From Dictyostelium discoideum (Eukaryota), in NCBI GenBank assembly GCA_000004695.1, contig CM000153.2:768001-832000 (forward strand): DNA of 64,000 nucleotides, read 5' to 3'. Shown piece after piece: positions 532 to 54,240 of this stretch (positions are counted from its first letter, which is position 1; each line of letters begins with the position of its first letter). The notes beneath the pieces are model-generated. The model ran no database searches. It was not told where the DNA came from and worked only from the letters and a program-made list of their open reading frames with translations. The translations under genes and the position numbers were made by a program.

Positions 532-3657
<3,126 letters not shown>

Positions 3658-32981: not shown

Positions 32982-32995
32982 TTACTTTTTCTTTT

Positions 32996-33029
<34 letters not shown>

Positions 33030-34427
33030 TAATTTAAATTTAAAAATTGAATCAGAAGGTTTCCAATTAAATATAAAAAATTCCCATGGATTGAAATTTA
33101 TTGAATCATTATTGACACAATATCTTTGTTTACAATAATAATTTGATCTTGATTTTTCACCAAAAATATCAAAATTACACATTGAATTTTGTTTTTTACC
33201 TTCCCAATAATTTGAATCATTTTCATTACAATAAACTGGATATCCTTCATCATCGAATGGTACACAATATGGATTATCAGTTGCATATATCCAATTTTTA
33301 ATTATTGTACCATTACAAGTTTTACAATCTTGGCCAATAAAATTACCACTACAATGGCAATAACCAAATTTATATTTATGATCAAATAATAAAATTACTT
33401 TAATTTTACTATCATAAAATAAATGTTTATCATCAATATTTAAAATTTTACCAATGGTTGAATTTGTTGTATAGATTAAATAATTTAAACCTTGAAATGC
33501 TTGAATTGAATTTATACCGGTTTCTTTTAAATGTCCCTCTACATTCTTCTTTAAGGAAATCAATACTACCATTTTTTAAACATTTTATTGGTTTTCTTAT
33601 AATACCGTCTTCTATCACATAATAGATAAAATCATAGGCAAATGAAATTTTACTTGAATCTCTATATCTTGGAATTCCATTGATAAGATTTGTTGAATAA
33701 TTTTTAATTGAACAATTTATACAACGTATTGTTGCCATACCAAATTCATCAAATTCGCTATAAGGTTGTTCATAATATTTCTTTCTATAATAAACTTTTG
33801 AATTAATTTCCCAAATTGATTTACAATCTATATCATTATAAATAATATTTTCTGCACTTTTAATCTCTTTATAATTTGTTGAATTAATTTTTAAAAATTG
33901 TTTTGAAATTAATTTATTTTCTAAACATATATATTGAGTGAATTCACCTTCATTATTTTCATCTTTACGGATCATTATGGGAATTTCAATTATTTCTTTA
34001 CCAATTTGATCAATATCATTAATATTACCATTTAAACAAAGTCTTGTTATAATTTCAACATCTTTATTTGGGTTATCCACATATAATTGTACACCAGTTA
34101 CTCTTTTATATTTTGTTTGATTTTTATTATGATTCAACTCTTCATTAATTTTCATAATTGTTTCAAGTCCGTCATTTACTTTTTCATTATTTATTGGAAT
34201 TGAAAATAAGAAAGTTTCTTCAATTTTTTTAATTGTATTTCTTCCCACAAAATAAATTTTATTTGGTTATGGTTTACATGTCCTCCACCTATTATAAAAA
34301 TTTGATTTTCTTTTTTACAATATCCAAAGGGTGTTTCACATTGATAGTCATATAAACATTTATTTGATTTTACTAATTTTACTATTAAAATTAAATAAAA
34401 TAATATATATCTTAATTTAACTATCAT
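32982..34427 (-). CDS. Secreted EGF-like-domain protein. Gene model incomplete, possibly a pseudogene.
   Basis: Signal-peptide exon 'MIVKLRYILFYLILIVKLVKS'. Long middle ORF 33448..34248. 3' ORF with laminin-type EGF-like 'CHCSGNFIGQDCKTCNG' and further Cys pairs. A 109-nt GTATAA..TAG intron (33517..33409, phase 2) cleanly joins middle to 3' part ('...FKRNR|KIKVILLFDHKYKFGYCHC'). The join between the signal-peptide frame and the middle frame (34191..34248) has no clean intron. Only a weak GTGGAG..AAG candidate exists. A frameshift is possible. Confidence 0.4.
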
Positions 34428-35655: not shown

Positions 35656-36039
35656 TGAGCCATAATTCATTTTTAAACAAAATAAATTTAAAATTAATAA
35701 TTATCTCAGATAAAAAAATATGTTAATGGGTATTATCAAAGACCCATAGATGTAAGGTAGATTGATAATTTCCAACTCTATTTTTTTATTTTTTTTATTT
35801 CTATTTTTATTTTAATTATATTATTTTAATTTTTTATTATTATTTTTATTTTTATGTTTTATATCTTTAATTTTAATTCTATTATTATTATTATTTTTAT
35901 TATAATGGTGGTTATTGTTTGAATAAATATAAAAAATGATATAATTTAGTTTGAAAATAAATTAAATTTGATTTAACTTTTATATAAACATTATTATGAT
36001 TATTATTATTTGATTTTTAATCCTGTAAGAATTAAAACC

Positions 36040-36690
36040 ATTCTTTATTGAAAAGGGAGTGCCAGAAATTGAAGTTTAATTTTTAATTTCATTTAATGGT
36101 ACTAAAGTACATAAGATATCCACAGTATCTGGTGGACTATTAATTACGAATGGAATTGAGAAATCTTGATTTGAAAGTAAAGGTGAAGGAGTTGAATAAT
36201 TGAGTTGTTTTTCAACATTTGAGTGATTAGTATTAAAAATATATCCTGGTGATGATGGAGAATTTTTAAATTGATTAATAATTTCAATTGGAATTTTATC
36301 TAGTCTACATTTTATTTTGCCAGTTAATTGTTGTAGATTGATTTAAGACCAAATCATTAATGTAAAATAATGATGATAAACATTTCTTTATGATTGAATG
36401 TATAATTGGATCATTTTTAGTTTTTTCAGATTGTTGTTTTAAAATATTCATTGTAATATCATCTACTGCATCTAAACCAATTGAATTTTGGAAACTTGGA
36501 TTATTTCTAAATGAATTTCTACCTTCTTTAATTAAATCATAAATTTCATGAACTTCTCTCCAAGAATTCTCACATTCTGTTAAAAGTTTAATAATATTTT
36601 CACCAACTTTAAAAATATTATTTAAATCGGCTTCTGGTGATGGGAAATTACCAGTACCAAGTGAACCAGGTCACATATAAAAGTCTAAAA
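36040..36690 (-). pseudogene. Degraded fragment of the C-terminal domain of the NTPase-RING-patatin family, remnant of a further array member
   Basis: About 85-90% nucleotide identity to 42030..42700 and 47525..48190. In-frame stop ('ttgaagtttaattttt'). Lacks the rest of the gene. Similarity ends abruptly at about 36690. Confidence 0.7.
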
Positions 36691-37454: not shown

Positions 37455-39623
37455 TTAATTTTTAGTAGTTATGAATGAATTCTCTATACCATTATTTATT
37501 GAAAAAGGATTACCTGAAATTGAAGTATCATTTTTAATATTATTTTTTGCAACCATAGTACATAAGATATCAATTATATCTGGTGGATTTTTGATTATGA
37601 ATGGATTTGAAAAATTATTTAATTGATTATTTGGGTGTGGAGGTGAAGGAGAAAAATATTGAAAATTTTTATCATTGTTTGAATACTTTAATACAAAAGC
37701 TGAACCTTTTTTTAATTGATTAATTATTTCGATTGGAATTTTATCAAGTCTACATTTTATATTACCAGTTAATTCTTTTTTAGATTTATTAAAAATTAAA
37801 TCATCAATGTAAAATAATGATGATAAAGATTTCTTTATAATTGAATGTACAGTTGGATCATTTTCAATGTTTACTTTTTGTTTTAAAATATTCATTGTAT
37901 TATCATCCATTTCATCCAAACCAATTGATTTCTGGAAACTTGGATTGTACCTAAATGAATTTTTACCTTCCCATATGAAACCATAATAAATTTCATGAAC
38001 TTCTCTCCAAGAATTTATAGATTGTGTTAAAAGATTATATTCCTGATCACCAACTTTAAAAATGTTATTTTTTTGATTTTCTGGTGATGGGAAATCACCA
38101 GTACCAAGTGAAACTAACGTGTCTAAGTTTCTACAAGGCCACATATCTTTATACTCTTTCATTGCAACTTTACAAGGATTATTATTCTTTAAACCACCAT
38201 CAAGAAATTGACGACTATTATATTCAAATGTTCTGAAATATTTAGGTGCAGCTGATGTGGCTTCAGCTGCGTCAGTTACTTTTGAACCAGATATAAAATG
38301 TGTTTGTTTTGAACATTTTGATGGGTATGTTTTTTTTTGATAATTTGAAAATATACACTCATCAAAATCACCAGACTCTTGTGTTACAGTTACAACTGCA
38401 GCCCTTATTTTTGGAAATGAAATTGATAAAAATTTGTCATTTAAAATGGTTTTATAACATTCTTTTAGTTTTTTTCTTTTATATTTGGGTTTTCCAAATA
38501 TATGGGTAATAATACCCAATGTAGGTCTTTCATAACCTTTTTTTGCCAAAATGTCAAATGATATAGCTAATTCTGGTAGTGTTTTCTCAGTTGATGCAAG
38601 TTGTAAAGCAACTAATCCACCTGCAGATGTACCAACAATTAAATCAAACAATTTTGAAATATGAATACCATATAGTTGCTTTTGTATTTCTTGTAAAACA
38701 TTGCAATGTAATATACCTCTAACTCCTCCACCATCCAATGATAGAACTCTTGCACCCATTGTTTTAATAAAATCTATTTCCTTTAATATATATTCTCTAT
38801 CCCCATAACATCCTGGAACTCTACATTCATCTTTAGGTCGATCAGGCATTTGAGAAAATATACCAAGTGAGCAATCTAAACATAGAAAATGTCCACATTT
38901 ATATTCTATATATGGAGAATTTAAACAACAACCAAAACAAACACCTTGATTTGTTGTTGCATGGCCAATGAAAACTTGTTTAATTGTTTCTTTACCAGAG
39001 AGGTGATTACTTAATAATAATGATAAATCATCATATTTTACTGATTCATCAAATTCTCCATCCCATGTATATCTTACTTCTGATTGGTTAAAAAAAGAGC
39101 CAAATATTTCAGTGTGCTTGGGTTTATATGTTTCACTTGATATATGCTTTGTATGAGTACCCCTAAAATTTGTACATGAATAGCCATGTACATTTTTTGA
39201 ACCACACGGTACCATCCCATGTATTTCACCTGATACTAGTTCTAATATGCTTTCAAAACGTGGATGCAATTTTTTAGAATACTCTGGACCTATGTGGTAA
39301 ATTTTTTTAAAATTTGTGTAAATCTCTGGCAATCTAAATTTTAATATATTCAAACAATGGGTGTAACTTTTTGATTCTTTTGAATTACATTTAAATGTTT
39401 CAACAAAATAATAATAATTTATTAAAAAGAATTCAAATAAGTAGTTGGCATGTAAATTTATCATTTGATCTGTCAAAGAATGTTCTTGATTTTTTGAATA
39501 AATTGGCAAAGTTGATTCTTCACTTCCAGATTTATGATTTTGATGTAAATTATCTAAGTCTGGATTAGTTTGAAAAAGACCATCTACTATTGGTCTTTCT
39601 TCTAGTTGTGTTTTATCAATATA

Positions 39624-39722
<99 letters not shown>

Positions 39723-40025
39723 ATTATTATTATTATTATTAGTATTATTAATATTATTATTATTATTATTATGATTTTTATTATTATTATTAGATGAAGT
39801 AGTTGTAGTTGTTGTTTTATTACTGATATTTGCCTCTCTATCCTTTAATATATCTGGTTCAAAATAAGATTCTTCTGAATTTATTGAAAATGTTATTGGT
39901 GTTCCTAAAAGATTTTGAATGGATTTAATTGATGAATCAGAAAATGTGTAATGTGACATATTCCCAATTTTATTTGAAGAAGAAGAAGAACTTGGCAAAT
40001 CTTCATCTGCATTAAAATTAATATA

Positions 40026-40096
<71 letters not shown>

Positions 40097-41490
40097 CATT
40101 ACTATTATTTGAAGTGAAATTTCTAAAAATTTTATTTGTTGATTTTGGTTCTTGAAAATTTGAAAAATCATCAATAATTCCAGTACAATTTAATTTAACT
40201 AAATCGGGTGAACCTATTGGATTTTTACTAAAGAAATTAGTTAAATTTGAAATTCTTTTCATACATTTTGATTTTTCAACAGAAATTTTTGGAGTTCTAT
40301 TATTTTTAAATTTTAAAGATTCTAAAACCTTTTCACTAATAGTTTCTTCCAATTTTTTAAATTGACTTTGATATCTATTAAAAGAATCTAATTCCTTTCC
40401 ATTAATATTTGGTAAGAAAATGATTGAAACTGATTGAAAACGTGTTTCTATCTCTTTTGAACCATGAAAATAATCCTTAAAATATTCTTTCTTGGCATAT
40501 TTCATATCATCATATTCTTTATTTTTATTAGAATTATTAAATAAAATGATTAAATGTGGACTACATGGATTATTTGCACTATCAGCTGCAACCGAAGAAA
40601 ATTCAAGTAAACTATCAATAACATCACCTCTATTTCTGGCATCACCATAAAATGTTAAAACAAAAACATCTGAACATAAATATAATAATCTTGGATAAGA
40701 TGATTGGACATATTTACTTCTAATATCAGCCTTCTAAATAATTAAATAAATAAAATAAAAAATAATAAAAAGAATTAGGAAAAAATCCATTATGAAATTA
40801 AAAATTTTTAATTTTTTAAAATCAAAATACAAACTATTAATAATGATTCATTTTTCTCATCTTTTTCTTTTTTTTCATTTCTTTCTTTTAAATCATTGGT
40901 TTTTTGAGAAAATGTTCCATTGATTCCTTCAGAATCAATAATTACATATTTAAACTTTTCTTCACCAACAGTTTCACCAATAAATGAATTTAAATCTGAA
41001 GAGGTTGATGTAATTGAATCACCACCAGGAATTGGATGATCGCAAGTTTTTGTCAAGTTACAAATTGTGGTTGATTTACCTGAGCCACTAGAACCAATAA
41101 AACTATCGACTAAAAATGGATCTTTATCTGATAATCCAATTTGACCCCATTTGTATCCATGATCAATTGTCTTTGTTTTAGTATTAACAAACAAAAGTTT
41201 ATTTTTTAAATCCATTGATCTATCATATTTTACAATATCATTGTAGCCTTGTGTGAATTTTTGATATTTAAGAAAAAAAGTAACCCTTTTAAATTCTTCA
41301 TAAGGAATTGTTTGGTGTTCTGATTCATCCTGATGTCTAGTTGCACATGATTTACAAATAATTCTATCTCCATTACATTGAAGACAAAAATGAAAATCAT
41401 CACTATTTGTTGATTCTTTTTGACATTTTTTAAAGTCACAAATTATTTTGGTAGGGTATTTATAAATTTCATCTTTTACAAATACCTTTT

Positions 41491-41494
<4 letters not shown>
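37455..41494 (-). CDS. Multidomain protein (array copy 1): B-box-like zinc finger, TRAFAC-class P-loop GTPase, RING-like Cys/His motif, patatin-like phospholipase and a conserved C-terminal domain. Two exons: 41494..40835 and 40733..37455.
   Basis: Exon 1 (ORF 40808..41494) holds 'C-x4-C-x11-C-x2-C-x6-C-x2-C-x3-H-x5-H' and P-loop 'FIGSSGSGKSTTI', then 'IIDSEG' (G3-like). Non-consensus GTTTGT donor at 40834. Acceptor '..ttatttag' at 40734, phase 0. Exon 2 continues in frame above the track's Met ('KADIRSKYVQSSYPRLLYLCSDVFVLTFYGD...'). RING-like 'CFGCCLNSPYIEYKCGHFLCLDCS...CRVPGC'. Patatin motifs 'LSLDGGGVRG' and 'GTSAGG' plus catalytic-Asp region 'DGGL.NNNP'. Poly-N linker. Confidence 0.7.
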
Positions 41495-42009: not shown

Positions 42010-45967
<3,958 letters not shown>

Positions 45968-46463
45968 CTACAATAAAAAAAAAAAAATTTGTAAAAAAAA
46001 AATTATTAAAAAAAAAAAAAAAAAAATTTAAAATTTTTTTTCTTTTATCAACTTAAAAATGCTTCCAAATTTTTCCACTTCAAAATTCAACCACTTAAAA
46101 ATGCTTCAAAATTTTTTTTTTTTTTTTTTAAAATCTTAAGTTTGATTTGGGCCAATATTTTTTTTTCAATTTTTAAAAAGAAAATAAAAAAAGGATTAAT
46201 AATAATTAAATTTAAAATTTGATACCAACAATTTTGAATTCTAAAAATAAACTTTTTTTTATTATTTTAAAGTCCCTTCAAATTTTTGTAATTACAAATA
46301 TTAATATGGTGAATTTTATAATTACAAATATTTTTTATTTTTAAAGTCAATACTGTGAGTGTAACTTAGAAAAAAAAAATTTTTATTTCTTTATTTTTTT
46401 TTTTTTTTATTTTAATTTTTTTTATTTTATTTTTTTTCTAAACCCCACAAATATATTTTTTTT

Positions 46464-47505: not shown

Positions 47506-47949
47506 TTAATCCTCCAAAAGTATGAATAAATTATTTATACCATTCTTTATTGAAAAGGGAGTGCCAGAAATTGAAGTTTCATTTTTAATTTCATTCAATG
47601 GTACTAAAGTACATAAGATATCAATAGTATCTGGTGGACTATTAATTACGAATGGAATTGAGAAATCTTTATTTGGAGGTAAAGGTGAAGGAGTTGAATA
47701 TTTAAATTGTTTTTCAACATTTGAGTGATTAGTATTAAAAATAAATACTGGTGATGAGTTTTTAAATTGATTATTAATTTCGATTGGAATTTTATCAAGC
47801 CTACATTTTATATTACCAGTTAATTGATTTGTAGATTGATTTAAGACCAAATCGTCAATGTAAAATAATGATGATAAACATTTCTTTATGATTGAATGTA
47901 TAATTGGATCATTTTTAGTTTTTTCAGATTGTTGTTTTAAAATATTCAT
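47506..47949 (-). pseudogene. C-terminal domain of array copy 3 displaced into another frame by a 1-nt insertion, with an upstream in-frame TAG (disrupted C-terminus)
   Basis: Aligned with copy 2 (42440..42560), copy 3 reads 'ccaattgaCTTTTTggaaac' versus 'ccaattgaATTTTggaaac' (+1 nt at about 47985). A cca-to-cta change at about 48060 creates TAG on the coding strand. Confidence 0.55.
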
Positions 47950-47956
47950 TGTAATA

Positions 47957-50544
47957 TCATCTACTGCATCTAAACCAATTGACTTTTTGGAAACTTGGAT
48001 TGTGTCTAAATGAATTTCTACCTTCTTTAATTATATCATAAATTTCATGAACTTCTCTCCTAGAATTTTCACATTCTGTTAAAAGATTAATAATCTTTTC
48101 ACCAAATCTAAATAAATTATTTAAATCTGCTTCTGGTGATGGGAAATTACCAGTACCAAGTGAAGCCAAAATATCAATATTTCTACCAGGCCACATATCT
48201 TTACACTCTTTCATTGCAACTTTACATGGATTATTATTGATTAAACCGCCATCTTGAAATTGACGATAATTAAATTCAAATTTTGAGAAAAAAGTTGGTG
48301 CAGCTGATGTTGCCTCTGCAGCGTCAATTACATTTGAATTGGTAATGAATTTCCTTTGTTCTGAACATCTTGTTGGGTTAGTCTTTTTTTGGTAATTTAA
48401 AAATAAACATTCCTCTAAATTACCAGATTCTTGAGTTACTGATGTAACTGCTACTCTAATTTTTGAGAATGAATTTTTTAATTTTTCATCAGGTGGGAAT
48501 ATAGTTTTGAAGGATTCTCTTAGTTTATCTCTACTATATTTTGGTTTTGATACTAGGTTAGCTAATAATTGGAATGGATGTTTTACAAATACACTTTTTG
48601 ATAAACTTTCCATTGCTGTACTTAATTGTGCAGGAGTCTTTTGTGTTGATGCTAATGCCAATGCAACCAATCCTCCTGCTGATGTACCAACGATTAAATC
48701 GAATAAAGAAATGATTGGAATGTCAAATAGTTGTTTTTGAATTTGTTCCAATGCATCACAATGTAAAATACCTCTTACACCACCACCATCTAATGATAAT
48801 ATTCTTACACCCATTGTTTGTATTTTATCGATTTCTTTGATCTTACAAGAAAGTTTTCCATTACATCCCCTTACTCTACAACCTTCGTCCGATGTATTTT
48901 GGGTTTGGTCAATAAATCTACCAAGTGAACAATTTAAACATAATAAATGACCACATGTATATGGTATATATGGCGAATTCAAACAACAACCAAAACAAAC
49001 ACCTTGATTTGTTGTTGAACCTTGTATATTGTATGGTAGAATTCTAGGTATACTAGTAAGACGATTACTTAAAAATACCGATAAATCAAAGTATTCTAAT
49101 GATGGCACAAATTCACCATCCCACATATACCTTACGAATGTGTCGGTTTTAAAAAATCCTAACAAACCACCATTTGATAATTTATAAGTTTCATTTGATT
49201 GATGGTTTCTATGAGTTTCTCTATAATTCGTACAAGAATGACCTTTTGCATTCTTTGAACTACATGGTACCATCTTAAATATTTCTTTTGAAACTAAATC
49301 TAAAGTCTTTTTAAAAGATGGATGCAATTTTTTTGAAAACTCTGAATTAATATTATTTGTTTCCTTAAAAATTGAATAAACGTTTGGCAACTTTATTTTC
49401 AAAATTTCTAAACTATCAGAATAACATTTTGATAATGATGATGATGGTTTATTCTCTACTAAATAATTATAATTTATTAAAAAAAATTCTAATAAATACT
49501 GTGCATATTTACAAAGATGTAAATCACTTAAATTATTATCAAGTTTTATGACAGATGTGTTTAATGGTGATGATTGTGATCTTTTTAATGGTGATTGTGA
49601 TGGAGTTGTTGATGAACTATTTGATAATTTTGATGGTTGTGGTGATGGTGGTTGTAATGGTGATGGCGATGGTGGCAATTCTAATGATTGATATGATTGT
49701 GATGGAGATGGTGATGGTGTTGATAGTGTTGATGATGATGGAGTTGTTGATGAACTATTTGGTAATGTTTTTAATTCACTAATTTGTCTTTGCTGTGATG
49801 GTGGTGGCGATTGTAATGATTGATATGATGGTGATGGTGTTAATTCAATAACTTGTCCTTTTTGTAAATTTTCATTATTATATTTATTATAATGGTCTTG
49901 TGGAACAGTATCATCAATCTCTGGACGTAAAAATGATTGAATTTGAAAAAGCTCATCTGCTATTGGTCTTTCTTCAAGTTGTGATTTATCAATGTAACTA
50001 TTATAATCTTTATCATTATTATTAATAATTTTATCATTACTATTATTAATATTACTATTAATATTATTATTATTATAATAATTATTATCATTACAATTAT
50101 TTTTATTATTAATAATATTATTATTATTATTAATAATAATATTATTATTATTATTATTTTTATTATTATTATAATTATAATTATAATTATTATTTTTATT
50201 ATTATTATTATTATAATTATTATTATTATAATTATTATTATTTAAATTATTGTCCGAATTATTTTTTGAATTTGTAAATTTATCTCTATTGATAGGAGAC
50301 AATCCGGTTTGTGGTTGTCTGTTATTTTCATTTAATGGTTTCAAATTTCCCACTGAATATGTTCTGACCCTATCTCTAACTAAATTTGATTCTAATTCAA
50401 CGGGTTTTGAAGTATGCAAAGGTGGTGGTGAATTAAAAATAGTATGAAGACTTTTAATTGATGATGACGGAATTGGTGTTGAGAGATGTGATTTATTAAC
50501 AACTCTAGAGTTATTACTATTATTGTTATTATTATTATTACTAA

Positions 50545-50607
<63 letters not shown>

Positions 50608-50608
50608 G

Positions 50609-50643
<35 letters not shown>

Positions 50644-50721
50644 AAGAGATGGGCATTGATGGGATTGTTTTATTATTATTATTACTTTTATTATTATTAT
50701 TATTACTTTTATTATTACTAC

Positions 50722-50803
<82 letters not shown>

Positions 50804-51510
50804 ATTATTATTATTATTATTAGAGAAGGACGTTGATGGAACAGTTTTATTATAAATTGGTTTTAATTTATGTGTACTTGGTAATGGTTTTTGTAGTTGA
50901 GCTTGATAATCATTAAGTGAAATTTCATCAAATTTTCTTACTATACCAGTACAATTTAATTTAATTAAATCAGGGGAACCATCTGGATTAGAACTAAAGA
51001 AACTAGCTAAACTTGAAATTTTTTGCATTGATCTTGATTTTTCAACCGAAATTTTTGGACTTCTGCTTTCTTTGTATTTTAAAGATTCCAATACTTTTTC
51101 ACTAATCGTTTCTTCCAATTTTTTAAATTGTCTTTGATATCTATGGAAGGTATTATTTGATTTTTCATTAAAATTAGGTAAGAAAATTATTGATACTGAT
51201 TGAAAACGTAATTGTAAGTCGATTAAATGTGAATGTTGATCTTTGAAATATTCATTCTTTGCGAATGCCATATCATCATATTGTTCTTTTTTAGAGGAAT
51301 TATTAAATAAGATGATTAAATGTGGACTGCATGGATTATTGGTACTATCGGCTGCAACCTGAGAATATTGGACTAATCTATCATAAACATCAGCTCTATT
51401 TCCTGCATTGCTATCAAATGTAAACACAAATACATCTGAACACAAATATAATAATCTTGGATATGAATATTGAATAAATGGAGTTCTTATTTGAGCTTCC
51501 TAATTTTTGT

Positions 51511-51563
<53 letters not shown>

Positions 51564-52235
51564 TTAATATATCTTTTGGAAAAAAAAAAAAAAAAAAATG
51601 ATAATAATAATTACTTGGAGTTTTATTTTATTTGTTGTTTGAGAATTTGTTCCATTTATACCTTCAGAATCAATTATTAAATATTTATAATTTTTATTAC
51701 TACCCATTGTTTCGCCAATAAAAGAATTAATATCAGAAGATGTTGAAGAAAGAGTTTCATGATTTCCAGGAATTGGATGGTTATAATTTTTAGTTAAATG
51801 ACCAATTGTAGTTGATTTACCTGAACCACTGGTACCAATAAAACTAACAACTAAAAATGGTTCATTATCAGATAACCCAATTGAATCCCATTTATTTCCA
51901 AAATCAATTTTCTTTGATAAAGTATTAATAAATAATAATTTATTATCTCTATCCATTGATTCATTATATTGTTTAATATGTTGATAATCTTTAGTGAATT
52001 GTTCATACTTTAAAAAAAATGTAACTTTTTTATATTCTTTATATGGTATAGTTTGATGATCTGTTTGTCCAGTATAACCTTTTTTACAAGAAGTACAAAC
52101 TATTTTATCATCAGTGCATCCCAGACAATAATGAAAGTCTTCAATATTTGTTGACTCTTTTAAACATCTTTTTAAACCACATTTCATTTTATTACTATGT
52201 CTATAAACTTCATCTTTTACAAATGTTTGTTTCAT
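47957..52235 (-). CDS. Array copy 3: B-box-like ZnF, P-loop GTPase, RING-like motif and patatin phospholipase. Two exons: 52235..51615 and 51499..47957. C-terminus truncated by frameshift.
   Basis: Exon 1 (ORF 51564..52235) 'CGLKRCLKESTNIEDFHYCLGCTDDKIVCTSCKKGYTGQTDH' plus 'FIGTSGSGKSTTI' and 'IIDSEGINGT'. GTAATT donor at 51614. '..aattag' acceptor at 51500, phase 0, giving '...NKIKLQ|EAQIRTPFIQYSYPRLLYLCSDVFVFTF'. Patatin 'LSLDGGGVRG' / 'GTSAGG'. Confidence 0.7.
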
Positions 52236-52725: not shown

Positions 52726-52857
52726 AATTAATAATAACAATAAAATTAAATGTAATATCAACAATTTTAAATTCTAAAAATAAACTTTTTTTTTTTTTTT
52801 TTAGTTTAACACGAGTTTTTTTTTATTTGTTTTTTTTTTATTATTTATTTATTTCAT

Positions 52858-54240
52858 TTAAAGTTCGTCATGATCAACTTTTTTGGTTGATTTTTTGACT
52901 TCTTCTTTTTTGTCATCAGTTTTAACTAAATCTTCTTCAGCGACTTCTTCTTCTTCTTCATCAGCTTCTTCGGCTTCTTTTTCAGCAGCTTTTTCGGCAG
53001 CTAATTTTTCGTCAGCTTTCTTTCTCTCTTCAGCTTTGGCGGCTTCGAGGTCGTCAAACATTTTCTTTTCGGCTTCTTGGTTGGCAACAAAGGTCTTTTC
53101 AGAGAAATCTTTAGCTTCTTCGACAGAGTCGGTGACGATCATATTGTTAAAGATGGAACCAGATTTAACTTGCCATAATTCGAAACCGATAGCACCGAGA
53201 TCATTAAAGAGGTAGAGTTCATTGTCTTCAGCGTATTCTGGGTTATCAATTAATGGGTGTACCCATTCACCTTTGTATTCTGGATTTGGGATTTTCTTTG
53301 CTTTCCATTCACCTTTGTATTCTGGATTGGCGATGGTTGGGGCTTCCCATTCACCGTCGTCTTCTTCATTCCAATCCTCTGGTTTGACAGCTTCTGGATC
53401 AACGATTGAAGCTGGGATATCGTCATGACCGGCTGGTTTAACATCTTCTGGGTCATCGATTTCCTTTACGTCAACCCAATCGACTGGTTTGGATTGTTTT
53501 GGATCTTTGATTTGTTTTGATGGAAGTAATTCCCAATCATCAGCGAGGTTACCTGCTTGGATCTCTTTGTTATCGACGAGTACTTTGTAGGTGTTATCTG
53601 GTGAAATGACCAAAGTGTATTGATGAGTTAATTGATCGGTTTCAACTTTGTTGATTTCTTTCTTGATTAAATGGTTCTTTCCTTTGTAGTTGAGAATGAC
53701 GTGAACTCTCTTTGAGGCACCACAAACATCTGGACCAAACATAATGGAATATTCAGATTCACCATCGAATGCTGATTGATCTAATTTGGATGGTAATAAC
53801 TTGATGTATGAACCACCACAATCAACTTTTTGTTCATTCTTTACAGTGTATTGGAGAACTAAATCTTTACCTTTGTTACTGAAACTTGGGAATTTAGCTG
53901 ATACAGCGTAGAAACGAGCATCTTCACTAGTTTGAATACCTTTTTGATTTTCATCACCAAACCATTTACCTGCAGTATGAACTAATTTACCTGATTTACC
54001 ATCTTCTTTATGCCAATCACTAACAACCCATCTTGATTCCCAATCGTCTAAAAAAAAAAATTAAAAAAAATTGAAAAAAAAAAAAAAAAAAAAATTGTTT
54101 GGTTAGATTTAGTTATTATTTTTTTTTTTTATTTTTTCAAATCAAATTTACTTACTATCAAAGGTATCTTTGAAATGAACTGTTGATAATGCAAAATTGA
54201 AAACAAAAACTAAGAAAATTAAACACAATAAAAGTCTCAT
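52858..54240 (-). CDS. crtA: Calreticulin (ER lumenal Ca-binding chaperone, HDEL retention signal). Two exons: 54240..54156 and 54047..52858.
   Basis: Signal peptide 'MRLLLCLIFLVFVFNFALS'. GTAAGT donor and '..ttttag' acceptor, phase 1. 'KIDCGGSYIKL', 'IMFGPDVCG', the P-domain repeats 'PEDWNEEDDGEWEAP', 'NPEYKGEWKAKKIPNPEYKGEWVHP', acidic tail and C-terminal 'HDEL*'. Confidence 0.9.

Follow-up and report, generated by a model that had tools for sequence, protein, structure and literature searches.

Patatin-like phospholipases (PF01734) include potato patatin Pat17 and mammalian iPLA2β (PNPLA9), and CapV is a bacterial cyclic-dinucleotide-activated patatin phospholipase. In families that evolve by birth and death, tandem duplication leaves unprocessed pseudogenes that retain their introns and stand among neighbours at differing stages of decay. 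Here we describe a tandem family of patatin-like phospholipase genes in Dictyostelium in which one member, copy 3, is probably an unprocessed pseudogene, young and derived by duplication, or at the least has been freed from constraint.

The window is a 64,000-nucleotide stretch of Dictyostelium discoideum DNA (GCA_000004695.1, contig CM000153.2, positions 768,001 to 832,000 of the forward strand), and all coordinates below refer to it. Its G+C content is 21.9%, its composition is Dictyostelium-like and its nearest database relatives are Dictyostelium assemblies, so the locus is taken as dictyostelid nuclear DNA. A calreticulin gene (52858-54100, minus strand) with the C-terminal end …HDEL adjoins the patatin-gene cluster, and three tandem paralogues, copies 1-3, lie downstream of it, all on the minus strand. 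Copy 3 (47506-52235) consists of two exons. Exon 1 (51615..52235, minus strand) begins with an ATG start; its product contains a zinc-finger-like region rich in Cys and His as well as the P-loop GTSGSGKST. An orthologous exon was found in both of the related genomes introduced below. The intron (51500..51614, minus strand) is 115 nt long, 93% A+T and in phase 0, with the boundaries GTAATT…AAATTAG, and the join of exon 1 to exon 2 preserves the frame (…KIKLQ/EAQIRTPF…). Exon 2 as readable (47957..51499, minus strand) ends at a premature TGA and holds poly-Asn tracts, a RING-like Cys/His motif (CxxC…CxH…CxxC) and the whole Pfam Patatin domain. The order along copy 3 is thus zinc-finger-like region, P-loop, long poly-Asn and Ser/Pro tracts, RING-like motif, Patatin domain and a C-terminal stretch for which no Pfam match was found. 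The match to PF01734 scores 108.6 bits (cut-off 27.7), covers profile positions 1-190 of 191 and lies entirely upstream of the frameshift. Copy 3 holds GGGVRG (the oxyanion hole), GTSAG and DGGL, at columns that are invariant in a 16-sequence alignment. For the N-terminal P-loop module, Pfam returned only the GTPase family MMR_HSR1 at a sub-threshold score (18.4 bits vs 21.9), a PDB sequence search returned only SMG-9 (E=0.7), and the AlphaFold model was unusable at pLDDT 34.

The other members of the cluster differ in their state of preservation. Copy 2 (42010..45972, minus strand) is a homologue of exon 2 with an intact C-terminus and is devoid of exon 1; in place of the equivalent of L001 2116-3186 (exon 1) it has about 100 nt. 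Copy 1 (37455..41494, minus strand) is a more divergent paralogue in which both exons are intact; its amino-acid identity is ~65% in the patatin half, and it served as an outgroup. The 3' relic of a fourth copy (36037..36668, minus strand), referred to here as the 36-kb relic, has lost 2 nt at one point and 13 nt at another and also contains a nonsense codon. For comparison we used the assemblies GCA_054859385.1 (labelled D. discoideum; L001) and GCA_054859205.1 (labelled D. cf. discoideum; L002). At synonymous sites they diverge from the window by dS 0.16 (L001) and dS 0.24 (L002). In each, calreticulin and a C2-domain gene flank only two copies. Gene A, next to calreticulin, is intact through …LFILLED in both assemblies, and the second copy is fragmented in both. 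Copy 3 corresponds by position to gene A of L001 and L002, and copy 2 is a lineage-specific tandem duplicate, with the split between copy 2 and copy 3 at dS≈0.035. The family decays repeatedly, as seen in the 36-kb relic, in copy 2 without exon 1 and in the broken second copies of L001 and L002. In Logan, contigs from SRR28564540 and SRR26869258/66/68 match the neighbouring calreticulin exon at 99.7-99.8% identity. Metagenome contigs at JGI, scanned for exact patterns of both the shifted and the unshifted site, gave no match, and the tail open reading frame (ORF), copy 1 and both exon-1 ORFs had no exact match in the protein collection. The literature on Dictyostelium patatin and on the accessions of the related assemblies held nothing on this locus.

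The initial annotation had reported that copy 3 carries a +1 frameshift and a new TAG that cut off its C-terminal domain. The frameshift and the intact out-of-frame tail are both present in the sequence. On the plus strand at 47981-47990 copy 3 reads gaCTTTTTgg and copy 2 reads gaATTTTgg, a 1-nt insertion in copy 3 as originally described; on the coding strand the corresponding stretches are CCAAAAAGTC in copy 3 and CC-AAAATTC in copy 2. The coding (minus) strand of copy 3 at 47990-47973 is TTCCAAAAAGTCAATTGG. The frameshift site (47983..47988, minus strand) comprises an A5 run (47988-47984) followed by a G (47983), and one of these six bases is surplus. At the aligned position copy 2 reads TTCC-AAAATTCAATTGG and the 36-kb relic also reads TTCC-AAAATTCAATTGG, so that the two have CCAAAATTC in common; copy 1 reads TTCC-AGAAATCAATTGG, L001 gene A TTCC-TAAAATCAATTGG and L001 gene B TTCC-AAAAATCAATTGG. 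The extra base occurs only in copy 3 and is absent from copy 2, copy 1, the relic, L001 A and B and L002 A. Based on these site alignments, it is real in the sequence as given and unique to copy 3. The indel is no chance pattern, being a direct alignment difference between ~98%-identical paralogues. It had been characterised as a run of five T against four. This holds insofar as one base is extra; the difference goes beyond run length, however, because the adjacent base also differs (coding G vs T).

Translation of copy 3 across the shift gives …NPSFQKVNWFRCSR followed by a stop. The ORF at 47957..51445 ends in …FQKVNWFRCSR, as had been reported, and the premature TGA (47959-47957, minus strand) lies nine codons past the shift, which makes SFQKVNWFR the junction peptide of a truncated product. 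The tail beyond it (47506..47982, minus strand) is out of frame and uninterrupted, with 158 codons from SIGLDAVDD to …LFILLED plus a stop; the last ~150 residues, said to be intact and out of frame, are accordingly open from 47982 to 47506, and the ATG-started ORF within the tail (47506..47949) is 147 aa long. Removal of base 47983 yields a single uninterrupted exon-2 ORF of 1327 codons with the conserved …LFILLED end, and the copy 3 product is then 1537 aa as compared with 1387 aa in the sequence as given. The one-base-shorter, unshifted forms of the site are CCAAAAGTC or CCAAAAATC. A full-length (~1537-aa) copy 3 product would be marked by NSRREVHEIYDIIK or SFQKSIGLDAVDDITMNILK plus the tail peptide QQSEKTKNDPIIH. 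Copy 3 and copy 2 have 75 differences over 3324 gap-free coding sites; the high identity described earlier is borne out at ~97.7% by this count and becomes 93.9% when gap columns are counted. The supposed TAG at ~48060 fared differently. The trinucleotide is present (48062-48060, minus strand), but it is out of frame and the ORF passes through it. What changed there is a Trp→Arg missense (48059..48061, minus strand): copy 3 has TCT AGG (Ser-Arg), the AGG being the altered codon, and the equivalent site is TCT TGG (Ser-Trp) in copies 1 and 2 as well as in both orthologues. The Trp replaced in copy 3 (NSWREV) is conserved in copies 1 and 2, in L001 A/B and L002 A and in distant relatives.

The order of events at the site can be read in two ways. 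With copy 1 and the L001 genes as the only outgroups, the simplest account is that copy 3 gained a G behind AAAAA and that A became T in copy 2. The 36-kb relic falls outside the pair of copies 2 and 3 yet has copy 2's AAAAT, and for this reason an A4→A5 expansion together with a T→G change in copy 3 is equally parsimonious. The direction of the indel therefore appears ambiguous on these alignments. An insertion of G as opposed to a homopolymer change had been favoured at first and was dropped, since the relic carries copy 2's CCAAAATTC.

The site also bears on whether the extra base is a sequencing or assembly error, in which case the true site would be A4 (CAA AAG TCA, Gln-Lys-Ser, which is acceptable as protein sequence) or would be free of the G (CAA AAA TCA), and copy 3 would be intact, encoding 1537 aa and corresponding directly to the intact gene beside calreticulin in the related genomes. 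We consider such an error unlikely, although a good deal speaks for it and no other rival carries comparable weight. The extra base sits at a 5-base homopolymer, a single base removed restores all 1327 codons, and both possible repairs yield Lys, as in copy 1 and in L001 A and B. The start codon, exon 1 and the GT..AG intron of copy 3 are intact, its positional orthologues (gene A of L001 and of L002) are intact as well, and copies 2 and 3 are ~98% identical at the site, which complicates read placement. Against an error, the difference from copy 2 is not one of pure run length, because G vs T differs too. The coding sequences of calreticulin and of copies 1-3 contain 138 homopolymer runs of at least five bases; the frame is broken at this one only, and the 137 others are in frame.

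We examined what the truncation would remove. In the 16-sequence alignment the motif F-R-x-N-P…I-x-L-D, which is widely conserved, is interrupted by the break between NPSFQK and SIGLD, and short bacterial-type canonical patatins run about 38 residues past the break point. In the AlphaFold model of the copy 2 equivalent (pLDDT 73.6, pTM 0.80; pLDDT 83-89 over residues 271-340), the frameshift point of copy 3 corresponds to residue 280, and the predicted elements around it are a strand at 271-274, helices at 289-304 and 306-317 and a β-hairpin at 320-340. The tail contains the conserved I-x-LD motif, two patatin-fold helices and then a ~120-aa lineage-specific region with an ISGxPF motif. As the alignment, the model and the fold matches all extend past the break, the truncation removes the end of the canonical fold plus the ~120-aa tail. 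What was said to be cut off, a C-terminal domain, is thus lost as far as the tail is concerned, and the loss also includes the last conserved strand-helix-helix of the patatin fold. The complete α/β patatin fold with the RxNP…I-x-LD strand and the terminal helices is found in copies 1 and 2 and is incomplete in copy 3, so a truncated copy 3 protein would probably be non-functional.

Restoration of the frame during expression, through programmed +1 ribosomal frameshifting (e.g. AGA-UGA-U) or through splicing out of a segment of 3n+1 length, would deliver the tail in spite of the shift. Formally both routes exist: a ribosome slipping by +1 at …AGA UGA U… would return to the frame of the tail, and 53 GT…AG segments that are 3n+1 long could bridge the site. 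We regard either as extremely improbable. The shift is confined to copy 3 and absent from its homologues, which speaks against a conserved recoding signal; all five aligned homologues (5/5) are single-frame and L002 gene A has an intact ORF, so a programmed +1 frameshift arrangement is not conserved. The downstream RNA is unexceptional, with an MFE of -14 kcal/mol and z=+0.56, and 137 of 200 shuffled sequences reach a fold at least as stable. The A+T content of the candidate introns is 67-77% as compared with 93% for the real intron, and each would cost at least 17 conserved codons; with any rescue, the conserved SIGLD motif would still be lost or replaced. None of the 53 formal GT..AG segments is intron-like, given their coding-like composition and the conserved codons that they delete, and rescue by an intron was rejected.

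Selection on the two copies was compared by placing the differences between copy 2 and copy 3 on branches with parsimony counts, using L001 A and L002 A as outgroups over 1108 gap-free codons. The copy 3 branch has 29 non-synonymous (N) and 6 synonymous (S) changes, giving ω≈1.2 (0.88 with the cluster described below counted once), indistinguishable from neutrality (P=0.83). In contrast, the copy 2 branch has 13 N and 11 S changes, with an ω of 0.30 that is below neutrality (P=0.004). The family baseline, obtained from L001 A vs L002 A, is ω = 0.32, and the N:S ratio of copy 3 departs from it (P=4e-4; P=0.01 with the cluster collapsed). Fisher's test between the copy 3 and copy 2 branches gives P=0.022, and P=0.14, which is not significant, with the cluster collapsed. 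The cluster (48548..48571, minus strand) consists of nine copy-3-specific substitutions, all non-synonymous, in eight adjacent codons of the patatin domain, which change NFITYPLI to QLLANLVS. Replacements specific to copy 3 thus strike conserved positions both in the NFITYPL stretch and at the Trp of NSWREV. A compensated frameshift and an inversion were both considered for 48548-48571 and neither fits; the changes are in-register point differences. Upstream of the shift copy 3 has 26 N and 3 S changes. Its tail has 3 N and 3 S changes, and the sole indel there is an in-frame 3-nt deletion.

The ω near 1 on the copy 3 branch is the main evidence for real decay, and it stands independently of the indel call. 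It argues against a sequencing or assembly error, as the baseline is 0.3, and so do the radical changes at conserved copy 3 residues, which are there regardless of the indel. Other points favour an error. Copy 3 has no disabling lesion besides the frameshift in about 4.6 kb, and its 27-35 specific substitutions created no stop codon (P≈0.05-0.17 under neutrality). All other indels between copy 2 and copy 3 (7/7) are multiples of three. A sole lesion, the lack of stops, the in-frame indels and the 3 N/3 S tail together imply that the shift is either recent or not real. The two options named at the outset, recent pseudogenisation or a homopolymer error, were the right pair, and the evidence leans to real decay with ω about 1. 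Diversifying selection in a fast-evolving family could also bring the ω of copy 3 near 1.

A third account keeps the truncation and gives it a use. The truncated copy 3 product, or the pair of a 3'-truncated copy 3 and a 5'-truncated copy 2, would be functional through sub- or neo-functionalisation, for example with copy 3 giving an N-terminal protein that is regulatory or altered in its catalysis and copy 2 giving an enzyme without the P-loop. The start codon, the intron signals and the three catalytic motifs are all kept upstream of the stop, copy 3 is free of further lesions, and copy 2 is under purifying selection (ω 0.30) although it is without exon 1. The ω of about 1 extends along the whole of copy 3, however, including the retained part with its 26 N and 3 S changes, and the RxNP…I-x-LD motif and two helices that are removed are present in every canonical patatin aligned. 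No transcript or protein that would speak for a functional product came to light; Logan-derived proteins were found for none of copies 1-3, a result that is uninformative on expression. We judge a functional truncation to be improbable. Very improbable, too, is a freshly split pair in which copy 3 without its tail and copy 2 without the P-loop exon act apart or together, or a truncated copy 3 that serves as a decoy or regulator in a fast-evolving, possibly defence-related phospholipase family with CapV as its nearest solved fold.

The reading of copy 3 as an ordinary young pseudogene is the most likely one because the tail is cut off and the protein changes as if unconstrained. Two features by which a pseudogene is recognised are found: a disabling lesion relative to intact homologues, in the sequence as given, and loss of purifying selection on its own branch, with ω 1.2 or 0.88 compared with 0.30 for copy 2 and 0.32 for the baseline. 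The likely course of events begins with the lineage-specific tandem duplication that gave rise to copies 2 and 3 (dS≈0.035). After the duplication, amino-acid changes would have accumulated in copy 3 at a neutral rate, including the Trp→Arg replacement and the nine-substitution cluster. Copy 3 would next have gained one base at CAAAAA/G/TCA, shifting the frame so that translation ends nine codons on. The extra base is probably a true part of the genome, and the frameshift would be recent relative to the duplication. Any copy 3 product would be 1387, not 1537, residues long; it would retain the oxyanion-hole, nucleophile and Asp motifs and would lose the last conserved strand, the two patatin-fold helices and the ~120-aa lineage-specific tail.

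A further observation runs against the pseudogene reading: copy 2, apparently the constrained copy, is itself without exon 1.

Annotations should mark copy 3 as a probable pseudogene, or its site as one for read-level confirmation; copy 3 should not be modelled as two genes or with an invented intron, and the 'second lesion' should be dropped. The locus provides a small example of birth and death beside calreticulin, in which one copy is intact, one is deleted at the 5' end, one is frameshifted at the 3' end and one is a relic. It may be of modest interest for work on amoebal lipases or putative defence genes, and the finding on copy 3 is an ordinary one that leaves current knowledge unchallenged.

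Compared with known systems, the encoded protein resembles patatin-like phospholipases such as Pat17 and iPLA2β in its strong Pfam match and in its GGGxRG, GxSxG and DGG motifs, and the fold predicted for the copy 2 equivalent agrees with 1oxw and 6aun (E≈1e-15). Unlike Pat17 and iPLA2β, the domain lies inside a ~1500-aa protein with a zinc-finger-like and P-loop module, poly-Asn tracts and a RING-like motif; it is followed by a ~120-aa C-terminal extension found mainly in dictyostelids, and in copy 3 the last part of this fold lies out of frame. Structurally, the modelled patatin region comes closest to the CBASS effector CapV (PDB 8zr9, 9jeh; E 7e-22, 26% identity), with an alignment of 331-343 columns that takes in the whole of the 344-residue chain. 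The likeness to CapV is at the level of the fold only; the Dictyostelium gene is eukaryotic, contains an intron and is no CBASS member. As a gene, copy 3 resembles the unprocessed duplicated pseudogenes of birth-and-death evolution in being a tandem paralogue with its intron retained, a single frameshift lesion and an own-branch ω≈1, and its surroundings resemble birth-and-death families in that the neighbours stand at differing stages of decay, from the 36-kb relic to the 5'-truncated copy 2 and the fragmented second copies elsewhere. It differs from typical duplicated pseudogenes in its very young age, with a single lesion and not one stop codon, and in that it is the counterpart of the ancestral gene, not the derived duplicate.

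Upstream of copy 2 of the tandem patatin-like phospholipase genes (window 45970-46270, minus strand), exon 1 is absent. About 100 nt in copy 2 stand in place of the equivalent of positions 2116-3186 in the locus retrieved from GCA_054859385.1 (L001), and no ATG occurs within approximately 300 nt upstream of the copy (45970-46270, minus strand). The first in-frame Met of copy 2 (MAFAKNEYF…) aligns with the annotated start of the related protein P0009 and matches the position of the first ATG in the exon-2 ORF of copy 1. Despite the missing exon 1, the ratio of non-synonymous to synonymous rates (ω) on copy 2's own branch, with sequences from L001 and from the GCA_054859205.1 locus (L002) as outgroups, was 0.30, indicating purifying selection.

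Copy 3 carries an N-terminal module on the minus strand (51615-52235 and 51100-51499), which contains a zinc-finger-like region, a P-loop (FIGxSGSGKST) and the motifs DSEG, YPRLLY.SD and PHLII.N. Pfam returned no above-threshold match to the module, a sequence search of the PDB did not recognise it, and its predicted model had a pLDDT of 34 with no usable fold. The module is also present in the Logan protein P0123 (574 aa), at 29% identity. In the patatin domain of copy 3, nine copy-specific substitutions fall in eight adjacent codons (48548-48571, minus strand), and all nine are non-synonymous. This cluster looks like the result of one multi-nucleotide event or of a micro-conversion from some donor. 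Neither a compensated frameshift nor an inversion accounts for the pattern.

A Cys-rich gene unrelated to the patatin family is split on the minus strand, into ORFs at 33448..34248 and 32982..33572 with the break at about 33529-33554. Whereas L001 has a single 203-aa ORF, the window has two overlapping frames, because it lacks five nucleotides (TTTAT) that L001 has at about 13140. This deletion is a second frame-breaking indel in the window, and no homopolymer is involved. Four Logan contigs (from runs SRR28564540, SRR26869268, SRR26869258 and SRR26869266), which begin within the calreticulin intron, are 99.7-99.8% identical to window 52821-54088; sequence data therefore exist for very close relatives.

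The patatin family beside calreticulin has rapid turnover. A 3'-only relic of a fourth copy lies on the minus strand at 36037-36668, inside a segment of approximately 1.7 kb for which L001 has no counterpart. The relic has lost 2 nt at one site and 13 nt at another, and one of its codons has become a stop (GAA→TAA). The window holds three copies and a relic, as compared with two copies each in L001 and L002. Whereas copy 1 of the window is intact, frameshifts and deletions have broken the second member of the family into pieces in both L001 (6970-11299) and L002 (8433-11732).
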